Shown one piece after another: positions 17,301-20,004 of a stretch of DNA of 36,920 nt; position 1 is the first letter of the stretch; every line of letters starts with the position of its first letter. The translations under genes were made by a program, and so were the position numbers. The stretch spans positions 1,324 to 38,243 of the forward strand of contig CAZKIY010000003.1 of NCBI GenBank assembly GCA_964552875.1, given 5' to 3'. Source of the stretch: an uncultured Planctomycetaceae bacterium (GTDB taxonomy: Bacteria > Planctomycetota > UBA1135 > GCA-002686595). The notes under the pieces were generated by a model that saw only the letters and a list, made by a program, of their open reading frames with translations, was not told the origin of the DNA and searched no databases.

Positions 17301-18008
17301 GGCTGGGCGCGCAAGGTCAAGGAACCGCGCAGCGGGATCACGTTCGTGCTCATCGCGCCGGGGACGTTCCAGATGGGTTCACCGGCGGGCGAGGAGGGTC
17401 GCAGTGGCGACGAGCAGCAGCACCCGGTGGAGATCACGCGCGCGTTTTATCTGGCCGAGACGGAGACGACGCAGCAGCAGTACGAGCGAGTCGCGGGCTC
17501 GAACCCGAGCACCTTCAAGGGACCGACGTTGCCCGTGGAGTCCGTGGATTGGACCCAGTCGCGCGCGTTCTGTCAGCAGATCGGTTGTGACCTGCCGACC
17601 GAGGCGCAGTGGGAGTTCGCTTGCCGTGCTGGCACGACAACACCCTTCTCGTTCGGGCCGACGATCAGCACCGACCAGGCGAACTACGACGGGAACGACA
17701 CGTACGGTTCGGGCCGCGAGGGGACCTACCGCGAGAAGACCGTCCCTGCGCGTACGTTCCCCGCCAACACTTGGGGGCTGCACGAGATGCACGGCAATGT
17801 GGGGGAGTGGTGCGTCGACGGCTACCGCGCGGACTTCCAGGCACTTTCCAGGACGGATCCCGTCGAGCAGCCATCGGGTGACACGCGCGTTCTGCGCGGC
17901 GGGTCCTGGTTCAGCGTCCCTGACTACTGCCGCGCCGCCGCACGCGCTGGGCGCGCGCCCGCCGACCGGAACGACATCGTCGGTTTCCGCGTCGCGAGGA
18001 CTCTGTGA
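14301..18008 (+). CDS. Transmembrane Ser/Thr protein kinase with duplicated Ig-like ectodomain modules and a C-terminal FGE-sulfatase/C-type-lectin-fold domain; DGR target protein
   Basis: Kinase motifs are present: GQGGMGAVYRG, VAVK, HRDIKPENILI, DLGIAK, GTPAYMAPEQ. A P/A/S-rich linker precedes a TM helix VPALWAAGAIAAVALVALGYVFW (about 15417-15486). Two homologous modules of about 260 aa follow. The FGE-type domain runs about 17265-18005 (FQMGSP...HPVEITRAFYLAETETTQQQY...VDWTQSRAFC...LPTEAQWEFACRAGT...GLHEMHGNVGEWC...RVLRGGSW). The last 39 codons are the DGR variable repeat. Confidence 0.9.
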   Translation: MTTPPPSDLANDPLLRDVPDVDGWKVLDPAILFAKIGQGGMGAVYRGRHVELEIDVAVKCLKPSLVAEDAQFEARFRREARLAAELTHENLVRLYELRRSHGLSYLILEFVDGETARDRVVRKGPLGEQEACGILLGVARGLAKAHRHREVIVHRDIKPENILISKTGEVKVADLGIAKAMESDGGTLSTQGFLGTPAYMAPEQWEDSSLVGPATDVWAAGVTLYFLLTGRTAVRTGTVHQISYEICNRAFPDVRALRSDVSADVLRILTRCTQRDPKARYADAADLARDLEAFLQGQMPSLSDRDSGSVKSTMPLFSPPPAHALKQVRLARSGKGTGTSGETAPASGAGSAAGRSTTPAAPATGAPRGSRRVPALWAAGAIAAVALVALGYVFWPRSDDSETRDGAGAPSGSRTSARNPTTVDSTLRAQPANAALVSGSTGGSVDATSASAATRIALDTPLRDGLLYTRDLNFVLAGQVRDAATPSLRLKRGGRTSTYPIESEGRFTIDLGLRRDARETIELALDEGSSLSFTLVQDSKPPQIELLAPGPTARRTNSLSIEVRARLDDPEAARCFVGASEMQAGSDGVWSAPAVELVAGENALVVVAEDLAGNRSTLPFSVRCDARGPALLSSVPPSGARVDIGTRVRVELAFDESPKVARLAGEAAAIAEARVSADLVVPAGEGPWRIAWSVEDDLANATSGQLVLERAVRRIARIVLDPPLPEGNVVYSRETKLDLRGRIEDASGESVRVEIAGRGSNHALGPQGALEVTSLTLPRDQRSAVALVHGTGESATRLEFEVVQDSLDPVLEFTRPDPAGRLTNRDAIDLSLRVTESNLAWVRLGSRELEAGPSDTWTAEGVALESEGSNTLVVTARDRVGREARASIEVVRDTLAPRLVRSEPPADTVLEAGAAVPIALEFDGAVASGKISGQPGEAADARLARAGQVPAGEGSFEVPWSAIDRAGNAANGILRYARRAKPKVRPPEGWEIVDATPGHDGWARKVKEPRSGITFVLIAPGTFQMGSPAGEEGRSGDEQQHPVEITRAFYLAETETTQQQYERVAGSNPSTFKGPTLPVESVDWTQSRAFCQQIGCDLPTEAQWEFACRAGTTTPFSFGPTISTDQANYDGNDTYGSGREGTYREKTVPARTFPANTWGLHEMHGNVGEWCVDGYRADFQALSRTDPVEQPSGDTRVLRGGSWFSVPDYCRAAARAGRAPADRNDIVGFRVARTL
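17883..17998 (+). repeat. DGR variable repeat (VR), in frame at the 3' end of the kinase gene
   Basis: Encodes [38 protein letters not shown]. It is identical to TR except at 18 positions. Confidence 0.9.
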
Positions 18009-18088
18009 CCCTTGGCCCTCGAACCCTCAGTCCTTTTCCCTTTCCGAAGGTGACGACATCCCTCGTCCGCCGCGTCACCGCGTTCTGA

Positions 18089-18119
18089 GCGCGGCGCAGC
18101 CGCGCGGCGACATTTTTTT
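18089..18119 (+). terminator. Candidate hairpin plus T-run between the target gene and TR
   Basis: GCGCGGC-gca-GCCGCGC (18089-18105), then ggcgaca, then TTTTTTT (18113-18119). The 7-nt gap between stem and T-run is atypical. Confidence 0.35.
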
Positions 18120-18244
18120 CTCAACCGTGGGAACCGCGTCCAAAATCTCCGCGAAGAGCTGGATTCACGCGCCTCGGATCGGAAGGCTGCCCTCATGGCC
18201 GGGGCGCGTCCCCGACCCTGGGGCACAGATCGTAAGCGTCGCTG

Positions 18245-18360
18245 ACGCGCGTTCTGCGCGGCGGGTCCTGGAACAACAACCCTGACAACTGCCGCGCCGC
18301 CAACCGCAACAGGAACGCGCCCGCCAACCGGAACAACAACGTCGGTTTCCGCGTCGCGAG
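18245..18360 (+). repeat. DGR template repeat (TR), non-coding, adenine-rich at AAC codons
   Basis: Read in the VR frame it gives [38 protein letters not shown]. It has 11 AAC codons and 26 adenines in total. Confidence 0.9.
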
Positions 18361-18382
18361 CACGCCCGAAGTCCGAGCTTGG

Positions 18383-18946
18383 GTGATGAACCAACCACAT
18401 CTCCTAGGGAGCGCATCGGGGAGTCCCGGACCTGGTCCCGAGCGCGAGATCGTTCCGCCGCCGCACGCGGGGACGGAGCCCTCGTCGCCAAACGCCTGCG
18501 AAACCCGGCCGCCTCCTCCTCACGGAAAGGCGGCCGGGCCTGCTCTCGCCGACCTCGAAGCCGAGGGCGCCGGCGCCGCGCGACCGGCGCGCGCGCCGAG
18601 GCCGACGCTTCAAGTCATCGAGAGCACGCACGACCTGATCCTCTGGGCTGTCCCCGCGATCGGGAAGTTCCCGCGACACCTGCGCTTCACGCTCGGTGAG
18701 CGCATCGAGCAGCGCCTCTACGCCCTGCTCGAGAGCCTGATCCAGGCCCGGTTCGCGAGCGGGCCCAAGAAGGTCGAGCACCTGCGCCAAGCGAACGTCG
18801 ACATCGAGATCGCGCGGCACGGAGTCCGCCTCGCCTGGCGACTGCGGGTCCTCTCCCTGAAACAGCTCGAGCACTTCGCCCGCCTCACCGACGAGGTCGG
18901 CCGGCAAGTTGGCGCCTGGATGAAGTCGGCCACGGCGGTTCGATGA
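18383..18946 (+). CDS. avd: Accessory variability determinant (Avd-like four-helix-bundle protein) with an atypical low-complexity N-terminal extension
   Basis: The C-terminal ~115 aa have the Avd-type helical pattern: [47 protein letters not shown]...[45 protein letters not shown]. Starts are GTG 18383 or ATG 18386. The stop overlaps the RT start (ATGA). Confidence 0.8.
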
Positions 18947-20004
18947 GCGCCGGCCGCTGCGTACCTCTGGGTGCGTTCGAGGAGTTGTCGAGCTTCCCGG
19001 CCTTGATCCGTGCGAGTCGTCTGGCCGCTCGCGGGAAGCGCTCGTCTCCCGACGTCGCGGCGTGGCTCGCGGACTTGGAGACCAACGTCCTGTCGCTCTC
19101 GGCGGAGCTTCGCGCCGGAGCCTGGCGTCCGGCGGGCTACCGCGTGTTCGCGATCACGGACCCCAAGCCGCGCACGATCTGCGCCGCGCCGTTCGGCGAG
19201 CGCGTGGTGCACCAAGCCTTGATCAGCGCCGTCGAGCCGACCTTCGACCGTGGGTTCATCGAGGATACTTATGCGTGTCGCAAGGGTCGCGGAACGCACG
19301 CCGCCCTGCGCCGCGTGGCGGGATGGGCCGCCACCTATCCGTGGGCGCTCAAGATGGACGTTCGGAAGTACTTCCCCTCGATCGATCACTCCATCGCCTT
19401 GGAACTCGTCGCGCGACGCGTGCGCTGCCCGCGGATCCTGCAGCTCTTCGAGGTCATCCTGGCGTCGTGGGTCAGCGACGAAGCGCCGCGAGTTCGATTC
19501 GCCGGGGACGGGCCCGGCTCGACGGAACGCCCGCGCGGATTGCCGATCGGGAATCTGACGTCGCAGTTCCTGGCGAACGTCGTCCTCGATCCCGTCGATC
19601 AGCGGATCAAGTGCGGTCTCGGGGTCCGGCCCTACGCGCGTTATTGCGACGACTTCGTCGTCTTGGCCCACGATCGTGACGGACTGCGGCGCGTTCGCGA
19701 CGAGATCGAAGCCTCCCTCGCACGGCTGCGGCTCGTCCCGCACCCCTGCAAGACGCACGTCTTCCCGACCGCGCAGGGGATTCCCTGGCTCGGCTTCGTC
19801 GTGACGCCGCGTGGCATTCGCCTGCGCGAGTCCGGTCTGCGCGGCGCTCGACGTCGACTGCGCGCATTCACGTTCCGAATCCGCCGCGGGGACGCTCGGC
19901 CCGAGCGCTGGGTCGAGTGCGTTCGCGCTTGGGCCGCGCATGCGTCCCACGCGAGCGGCGGTCTTCGCGCGCGACTCTCGGCGCAGTGGGGATACGGAAG
20001 CTGA
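18943..20004 (+). CDS. DGR reverse transcriptase
   Basis: 353 aa. RT motifs are present: [44 protein letters not shown], the DGR-specific [16 protein letters not shown], the catalytic [12 protein letters not shown], and WLGF. Confidence 0.95.

Follow-up and report, generated by a model that had tools for sequence, protein, structure and literature searches.

A Probably Active Diversity-Generating Retroelement Acting on a Predicted Receptor Kinase in an Uncultured Planctomycetota Bacterium

Introduction

In a 36,920-nt stretch of DNA from an uncultured Planctomycetota bacterium, hereafter called the window, the 3' end of a long open reading frame (ORF) recurs a short distance downstream, close to a gene for a reverse transcriptase (RT). 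Are these copies the variable repeat (VR) and the template repeat (TR) of a diversity-generating retroelement (DGR), is such an element still at work, and which protein does it diversify? A preliminary description of the window had claimed a complete DGR with adenine-specific divergence between VR and TR, and this claim is supported by the repeats, the RT, the accessory protein Avd, the domain of the target protein and natural alleles of the locus. We consider it almost certain, from comparison of sequences, that the element is an active or recently active chromosomal DGR. The interval originally assigned to it, 17883-20004, does contain TR, avd and the RT gene; because the target gene belongs to the element, however, the whole spans 14301-20004. 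Its genes and repeats, in window positions, are the following.

14301-18008, plus strand: target gene for a membrane Ser/Thr kinase of 1235 aa (Pfam, motifs, hydrophobicity and PDB match)
17883-18001, plus strand: VR, the final 39 codons of the target before Thr-Leu-stop (codons 1195-1233 of 1235)
18245-18363, plus strand: TR, with 27 adenines and 11 AAC codons
18386-18946, plus strand: avd, 186 aa (ORF from 18383/18386; NCBIfam DivGenRetAVD, Pfam bAvd)
18943-20004, plus strand: DGR reverse transcriptase, 353 aa (Pfam RVT_1), the start of which overlaps the avd stop (ATGA)

Adenine-Specific Divergence of the Repeats

The repeat was recounted from the window sequence, with region 17700-20200 re-read. 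VR and TR align without indels over 119 nt at an offset of 362 and show 19 mismatches, 16 of which lie at adenines of TR. Tabulated by TR base, the differences affect 16 of the 27 adenine positions versus 3 of the 92 other positions (Fisher p = 3.4e-10), a strong adenine enrichment. The altered adenines are read in VR as G (8), T (5) or C (3), and the substitutions touch 10 of the 11 AAC codons of TR plus one AGG. These counts agree with those of the preliminary description, which had reported an indel-free repeat at 17883-17998 and 18245-18360 with the same offset, 18 mismatches over 116 nt, 16 of them at the 26 adenines of the downstream copy, and the same impact on AAC and AGG codons; its peptide strings for TR and VR are also correct on re-translation. 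The 116-nt block falls short only at its end, since the homology runs three bases further, to 18001 and 18363, and so takes in a 19th mismatch, the third that is not at an adenine (G17999 in VR vs C18361 in TR). Similarly, the earlier estimate of 10^12-10^13 protein variants is adequate for the 11 AAC codons alone (15^11 = 8.7e12), but the capacity reaches about 1e14 when the GAC and AGG codons are counted too, both of which vary in other alleles.

An adenine-wildcard scan of both strands of the window returned a single VR, with non-adenine mismatches at 2 of 90 positions as compared with 39 for the runner-up. A second VR in the window was rejected on this basis, and the 32-nt partial similarity at 36022-36053 is a chance match.

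The Reverse Transcriptase and Avd

The best PDB relative of the RT is that of the Bordetella phage BPP-1 DGR (bRT; 8ub7, E 3.3e-41), which matches it better than the GsI-IIC group II RT (E 3.4e-24) or a retron-type RT (E 7.7e-11). Its residues R77, D139, I202 and D236/D237 align to R74, D138, I181 and D215/D216 of bRT, in which R74 and I181 promote adenine mutagenesis (PMC7826257). The signature of DGR RTs is [I/V/L]GxxxSQ in place of QGxxxSP (PMC7826257), and the window RT fits it with IGNLTSQ, besides carrying a YCDD box. NCBIfam lacks a model for DGR RTs, and all its other RT models stay under their cut-offs with this protein, namely group_II_RT_mat (121 bits vs 300), retron St85 (44 vs 235) and, far under, the Drt models; a scan of the window with Rfam found neither group II intron RNA nor retron RNA. 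Together, these sequence comparisons support membership of the DGR family.

The ORF following TR scores 92.5 bits with NCBIfam NF033474 (DivGenRetAVD, equivalog cut-off 80) and 69.8 bits with Pfam bAvd (cut-off 40; E 3e-19), and its Avd domain has an isoelectric point of 10.8. A search of the PDB by sequence gave no meaningful match for Avd. The Avd accessory protein is found in about 74% of DGRs. The preliminary description had thus been right to read an Avd-like ORF directly after TR, the ATGA coupling of this ORF to the RT (at 18943-18946) and the motif LPIGNLTSQ with the YCDD box in the latter, and the clustering of the RT with group II or retron enzymes, which it had named as evidence to the contrary, is not what sequence comparison returns.

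Natural Alleles of the Variable Repeat

A 90% cluster around the RT has six members, two of which gave full loci, L002 and L003, from other Joint Genome Institute (JGI) metagenomes; over 14301-20004 their identity to the window is 98.8% and 99.3%, respectively. TR is identical at 119/119 positions in all three, whereas no two of their VRs are alike, 13-19 positions being different and essentially all of these coinciding with TR adenines. The 90% cluster around the target has seven members with four VR alleles, which read as follows in the segment SW...VGFRVA.

Window allele: FSV-PD-Y-CRAA-A-R-A-G-R-APA-D-RN-D-I
Second allele: FNF-PV-N-CRAA-N-R-Y-W-F-APA-F-RT-G-N
Third allele: YGD-PD-Y-CRAA-D-R-N-W-N-APA-D-RY-N-G
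Fourth allele: DSG-PD-Y-CRAA-G-R-T-G-G-APA-D-RY-F-F

All their variable residues fall on AAC, GAC or AGG codons of TR. The protein P0249 is identical to that of the window at 1194/1194 residues before VR and differs from it at 10 VR residues. The VR heterogeneity that had been proposed as a check is therefore present in natural alleles and confined to codons with TR adenines; judged from these sequences, it is the pattern predicted by repeated mutagenic retrohoming, and not by drift or a dead element.

The Target, a Kinase with a Variable Lectin Domain

The target begins with a Hanks-type kinase domain (aa 34-282; Pfam Pkinase, 6e-51), the motifs of which are intact: GxGxxG of the Gly-rich loop, VAVK, HRD, DLG and APE. 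A single strong hydrophobic peak follows at aa 375-395 (15423-15485), with RR before it and an acidic stretch after it, and the protein further carries immunoglobulin (Ig)-like repeats (Pfam Glucodextran_B/Big_13). The C-terminal domain, aa 1014-1233, belongs to FGE-sulfatase (Pfam, 5e-43) and has the fold shared by formylglycine-generating enzymes (FGE) and C-type lectins (CLec); VR sits within it, at the 3' end of the ORF, as is typical of DGR targets, in which C-type-lectin/FGE or Ig-like folds tolerate the variation. The best PDB match of this domain is TvpA (2y3c, E 5.8e-28), true formylglycine-generating enzymes ranking below. We thus predict a single-pass receptor kinase with its N-terminus inside and its C-terminus outside, in which the variable domain would be extracytoplasmic and the role that of a signalling or sensor kinase. 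Domains closely homologous to the FGE domain are attached to many different modules on their N-terminal side, among them caspase, TIR, TPR and kinase; it is a shuffled module.

The stretch of the target just 5' of VR, 17100-17880, has no homology to TR; here the window and L002 differ at about 6% of positions, as compared with about 0.1% in 14301-17100. The changes are a mixture of synonymous and non-synonymous ones and include clusters at 17103-17147; they suggest that the stretch either recombined with a diverged allele or is under diversifying selection acting on the lectin domain in addition to the DGR.

Structured RNA around the Template Repeat

Read from 5' to 3', the RNA in the cryo-EM structure of the BPP-1 complex has an upstream strand, then TR and a stem-loop that binds Avd. 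Next come a spacer strand, which forms the template:primer duplex with the 3' end of TR, and, adjoining it directly, the strand that forms the 'cPRT Stop' duplex with the upstream sequence; a short stem-loop and a long one bound by the RT follow (bioRxiv 10.1101/2023.10.23.563531). We compared the window with four diverged relatives, L164, L084, L004 and L167, all having the order TR-avd-RT and RTs 50-64% identical to that of the window where measured, by means of RNAalifold and pair counts. Two blocks of conserved nucleotides stand out, TGGGGCACNGNTCG at 25 nt upstream of TR and AGTCCCGGAYCNGGTCCCG about 60 nt downstream of it, and RNAalifold pairs one with the other. The resulting features are listed below.

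18219-18231 with 18429-18440, plus strand: long-range duplex; 96.7% of cells are paired, and both partners have changed in 4 of its 12 pairs
18357-18367 with 18419-18428, plus strand: 3' end of TR with the spacer strand; both partners have changed in 3 of the 5 pairs that were counted (18362-18367 with 18419-18424), the extension to 18357/18428 coming from the first RNAalifold run only
18365-18424, plus strand: hairpin 1, directly 3' of TR; both partners have changed in 8 of 11 apical pairs, and the avd start is near its apex
18442-18461, plus strand: hairpin 2, weak, with 75% of cells paired
18504-18538, plus strand: GC-rich hairpin with compensatory changes in the relatives
18364-18538, plus strand: the spacer-like structured RNA as a whole, from RNAalifold and pair counts in the five sequences

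The named structure has 89% of its cells paired overall, and 19 of its 40 pairs are changed on both sides, as against 8.0 +/- 1.9 in column shuffles (0/500 reach 19) and 2-8 in slid controls. The upstream strand of the duplex, 18219-18231, lies 13 nt before TR and is the analogue of the avd strand in the 'cPRT Stop' duplex of BPP-1. When RNAalifold was run without the upstream sequence, the whole of AGTCCCGGACCTGGTCCCG appeared as the partner of the TR 3' end; this was rejected, for its 3' part pairs with 18219-18231 with covariation, and only its 5' part is retained as TR partner. The predicted helices are collinear with those of the BPP-1 DGR RNA and lie inside a 5' extension of avd. They include the two elements that Handa et al. 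2024 describe for DGR RNA, a duplex joining the flanks of TR and a stem-loop right after it.

This extension comprises the first 74 residues of the ORF, which are rich in Pro, Gly and Ala and lie over the spacer RNA, the Avd domain beginning at about residue 75 (18608). There is no in-frame ATG, GTG or TTG between 18386 and 18608. In each of the same five sequences (5/5) an in-frame ATG or GTG is found 20-35 nt past TR, with the frame open to the Avd domain; four of these start codons fall within the apical loop of hairpin 1, and that of the window sits on the edge of the loop. The GC content by codon position is 0.80/0.72/0.73 in the extension vs 0.72/0.41/0.88 in the Avd domain. Across the five sequences, third positions of the extension are less conserved (0.48) than first and second positions (0.60-0.62), for which reason the extension is probably translated. 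That 18386-18607 might be a non-coding spacer, given the absence of the usual signature of GC at third codon positions (GC3), was considered and dropped in view of the lack of an alternative start, the frame kept in 5/5 sequences and the conservation by codon position. Having a conserved in-frame start and probably being translated, the extension would make the spacer RNA overlap the 5' coding region of avd. A bolder proposal, which we hold to be rather doubtful, is that in this DGR subclade the spacer RNA, by which the template would be positioned and cDNA synthesis primed, is wholly embedded in the translated extension, with 18364-18540 serving as both structured RNA and coding sequence and the binding of Avd and RT competing with avd translation. 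If true, the overlap would be a built-in feedback tying the amount of Avd to the use of template RNA, although any such regulatory meaning is speculation.

Signals at the Target Site

Downstream of VR one further feature can be read from the sequence.

18089-18119, plus strand: GC-rich hairpin (GCGCGG/CCGCGC, 18089-18105) followed by a run of seven T (18113-18119)

This hairpin may mark the target site, terminate the target gene or do both, and is regarded as a candidate only. Single-strand folds of this region give pairings that differ in part from the hairpin as read, and a strict terminator scan near the element did not call it and yielded nothing usable. A CT-rich tract followed by a GC-rich hairpin 3' of VR is also present in L164 and L004, where the stems have 10-11 bp. 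The hairpins of phage DGRs have a GC-rich stem of 7-10 bp and a GRNA tetraloop and stand 4-34 bp downstream of VR (PMC3240598), whereas that of the window lies 88 nt past VR, the distance in L164 and L004 being about 40 nt, and has the loop GCA/CGCAG or GCAU rather than GRNA.

At the 3' boundary of the repeats, after a shared GC-rich 20-mer, VR has GAGGAC and TR has GAGCAC. This single mismatch is kept in the window, L164 and L004, and may be a directionality element of the IMH/IMH* kind (initiation of mutagenic homing). The segment that contains it is predicted to pair with the spacer (primer) strand and, by analogy with BPP-1, would not be reverse transcribed. TR adenines 18359 and 18362 are unchanged in the three VRs for which there is DNA, and all four protein alleles end in ...RVARTL.

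Weighing Alternative Explanations

Could the element be a decayed, inactive DGR, in which the differences between VR and TR are the fossil of past retrohoming and those between strains are drift? Several points weigh against an active element. The hairpin downstream of VR is atypical in distance and loop, as just described, and two internal mismatches of the window VR are not at adenines, both of which would fit decay; moreover, the promoter scan found no sigma-70-like promoter for the TR-avd-RT unit, and the RNA model rests on five distinct sequences, from which the structure was itself derived. The GRNA hairpin is nevertheless a feature described from phage DGRs, and an element can belong to the DGR family without it. 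As to the internal mismatches, they are only two (17942 and 17948, C in TR becoming A or T in VR), are silent third-position changes within codons that go from AAC to GCA and from AAC to GCT, and do not occur in the VRs of L002 and L003; they are compatible with a background error like that of bRT, which is 0.5-3% at non-adenine positions (PMC7826257), or with later point mutation. A decayed element is further at odds with the intact state of every ORF and the presence of the catalytic motifs, as well as with the invariant TR of the three strain variants beside VRs that differ essentially at TR adenines only. For P0249, drift is ruled out because it cannot concentrate changes in VR alone. Overall, we judge that decay is very improbable.

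Another history would be a partial tandem duplication of the 3' end of the gene, with the downstream copy decayed into a pseudogene and the RT unrelated to it. Direct repeats 362 nt apart, the second of them outside any annotated gene of its own, are what such an event would leave. Decay, however, would not place 16 of 19 differences at the A of one copy (p = 3e-10), nor would it leave the non-coding copy unchanged in strains whose coding copies differ; it is the adenine bias together with the invariant TR that refutes duplication. An Avd and a DGR-type RT immediately downstream, and a layout that is repeated in diverged relatives, also contradict it, and we give this history practically no credence.

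Relatives of the Element

At E <= 1e-20, a protein search with the RT gave 1449 relatives; among those with a name, the nearest come from metagenome-assembled genomes (MAGs) of Planctomycetes. Among the species representatives of GTDB there is no close copy of the window RT, the best reaching 64%, and a metagenome scan with the RT profile gave, among the matches listed, mostly distant relatives. We screened 80 loci around RT relatives in GTDB genomes with a simple detector of repeats based on self-BLAST, and 59 of the 80 have an adenine-biased repeat pair of their own. In some of them TR follows the RT, in others it precedes the RT as in the window, and TR upstream of avd recurs among them. 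Two of the closest RT relatives with gene tables, P0007 and P0013 (56-57% RT identity), adjoin Pkinase+FGE-sulfatase genes of 1038 and 1316 aa, on account of which the RT subclade appears to travel with kinase-lectin targets.

In P0013 (GCA_041443065.1) and L165 (1-707; GCA_016793265.1), a gene for an AAA_33/Zeta-toxin-like P-loop kinase and an ORF of 62-63 aa stand immediately upstream of the RT; in P0013, the contig of which extends further, both lie between avd and RT. Wu et al. 2018 (PMC5758913) give avd, HRDC, MSL and CH1 as accessory genes, but no such P-loop kinase gene.

Proposed Mechanism and Comparison with Known Systems

If the element is an active or recently active DGR, then RT and Avd would bind an RNA that runs from about 18219 through TR and some 180 nt of structured spacer. 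This RNA would fold by pairing of the TR flanks (18219-18231 with 18429-18440) and of the TR 3' end with the adjacent spacer strand, after which the RT would copy TR into cDNA, misincorporating opposite adenines, and the cDNA would replace VR (17883-18001) at the 3' end of the gene at 14301-18008. The steps of cDNA priming and retrohoming are inferred by analogy with BPP-1. The outcome would be the recoding of up to 13 codons (11 AAC, one GAC and one AGG) in the ligand-binding face of the extracytoplasmic FGE/C-type-lectin domain, which would be tethered via Ig-like repeats and one transmembrane (TM) helix to the cytoplasmic Hanks-type Ser/Thr kinase. With this many recodable codons, the lineage could sample about 1e13-1e14 sensor specificities feeding one phosphorylation output.

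The element resembles the DGR of BPP-1 (mtd-avd-TR-brt) in the adenine-specific transfer from TR to VR, the RT of IGxxxSQ type with equivalents of R74 and I181, the presence of Avd, the location of VR at the 3' end of a gene with C-type-lectin fold and the order of RNA parts (upstream strand, TR, stem-loop, duplex of TR 3' end with spacer, stop-duplex strand and further stem-loops). It differs in being chromosomal and cellular rather than phage-borne, in having a receptor kinase instead of a tail-fibre protein as target, in its more distant hairpin 3' of VR without GRNA loop and in its gene order, which is VR-TR-avd-RT as against VR-avd-TR-RT. Because of this different order, the spacer RNA would lie inside the 5' coding region of avd in the window, whereas that of BPP-1 lies between TR and RT. 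The DGR of Treponema denticola is likewise cellular and its TvpA (2Y3C) has VR in a C-type-lectin fold of FGE type, but TvpA is a lipoprotein without kinase, and its cassette belongs to the architecture class containing HRDC (PMC5758913) whereas the window has Avd only.

Kinases fused to lectin domains are familiar DGR targets. Kinase-CLec is listed as target type b12 by Wu et al. 2018 (PMC5758913), Ser/Thr-kinase-CLec is the commonest multidomain DGR target in cyanobacteria (Vallota-Eastman et al. 2020, PMC7517822) and targets annotated as Pkn1/PknD recur in a 2024 survey of MAGs (PMC11661182). The cyanobacterial targets share with ours an N-terminal Hanks-type kinase and a C-terminal CLec domain bearing VR, for which a regulatory or sensor role has been proposed; cyanobacterial variable proteins are mostly predicted to be cytosolic (PMC7517822), whereas the TM helix and an Ig-like ectodomain of about 600 residues are predicted to put the variable domain of the window protein outside the cytoplasm, in a host of another phylum, Planctomycetota. 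In multicellular bacteria, DGRs act on CLec/FGE sensors fused to signalling modules, some of them Pkinase, with both cytoplasmic and periplasmic positions predicted (Dore et al. 2024, PMC10907252). The window element is like these antigen sensors in being a cellular DGR with a CLec/FGE sensor fused to a signalling module, but no genes for STAND NTPase, MoxR, vWA or effector-associated domains were found beside it, and a role in conflict systems is not indicated. The core order TR-(avd)-RT is listed by Wu et al. (PMC5758913) as well, avd being there on the reverse strand. Hence, kinase-lectin targets and TR placed before avd both have precedents, and the element is a canonical DGR.

Host and Genomic Context

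The element sits on the chromosome of its host, an uncultured Planctomycetota bacterium. Its flanks contain housekeeping genes for acyl-CoA dehydrogenase, sulfatase, lipoate ligase (lplA), an HDOD protein, methionyl-tRNA synthetase (MetRS; metG) and glycosyltransferases. The gcvT-gcvH-gcvP operon (10122-11219, 9685-10125 and 6556-9495) stands behind an ordinary glycine riboswitch (11398-11504, minus strand; Rfam RF00504, 57 bits), and GcvP shares 83-85% identity with proteins of Planctomycetota MAGs. Phage origin was rejected in view of these housekeeping flanks and of a scan of viral contigs with the conserved spacer motif, which found nothing.

Directly upstream of the target, the window and L003 have a ParD/ParE-like toxin-antitoxin pair (13485-14086, plus strand; ParE at 13757-14086), in place of which L002 has an aspartic-protease-like gene (1386-2192), so that a small variable islet adjoins the element. 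Directly after the RT lies a large ORF (20390-24046, plus strand; 1167-1218 aa) with a coding GC3 signature and an internal repeat of about 345 nt, without match in Pfam or NCBIfam; it is kept in L002 and L003, and no comparable gene was seen by the distant DGR relatives for which downstream genes are listed. Further away, a gene for an Arf/Rag-like small GTPase (27049-28569, plus strand) has a long C-terminal tail with 12-nt tandem repeats (27934-28041) encoding M-Q/H-P/S/N-G.

Significance

Nothing here alters existing knowledge of DGRs. The comparison of diverged cassettes, in which the genes stand in another order than in phage BPP-1, provides independent support for the RNA architecture of the DGR of that phage, and the natural allelic series, with four VR alleles on a nearly identical background, presents a cellular DGR very probably at work in an uncultured lineage of Planctomycetota. 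Hypervariation is here linked to the predicted extracellular sensor of a transmembrane Ser/Thr kinase, a receptor design that may help to ask which ligands such bacteria track.

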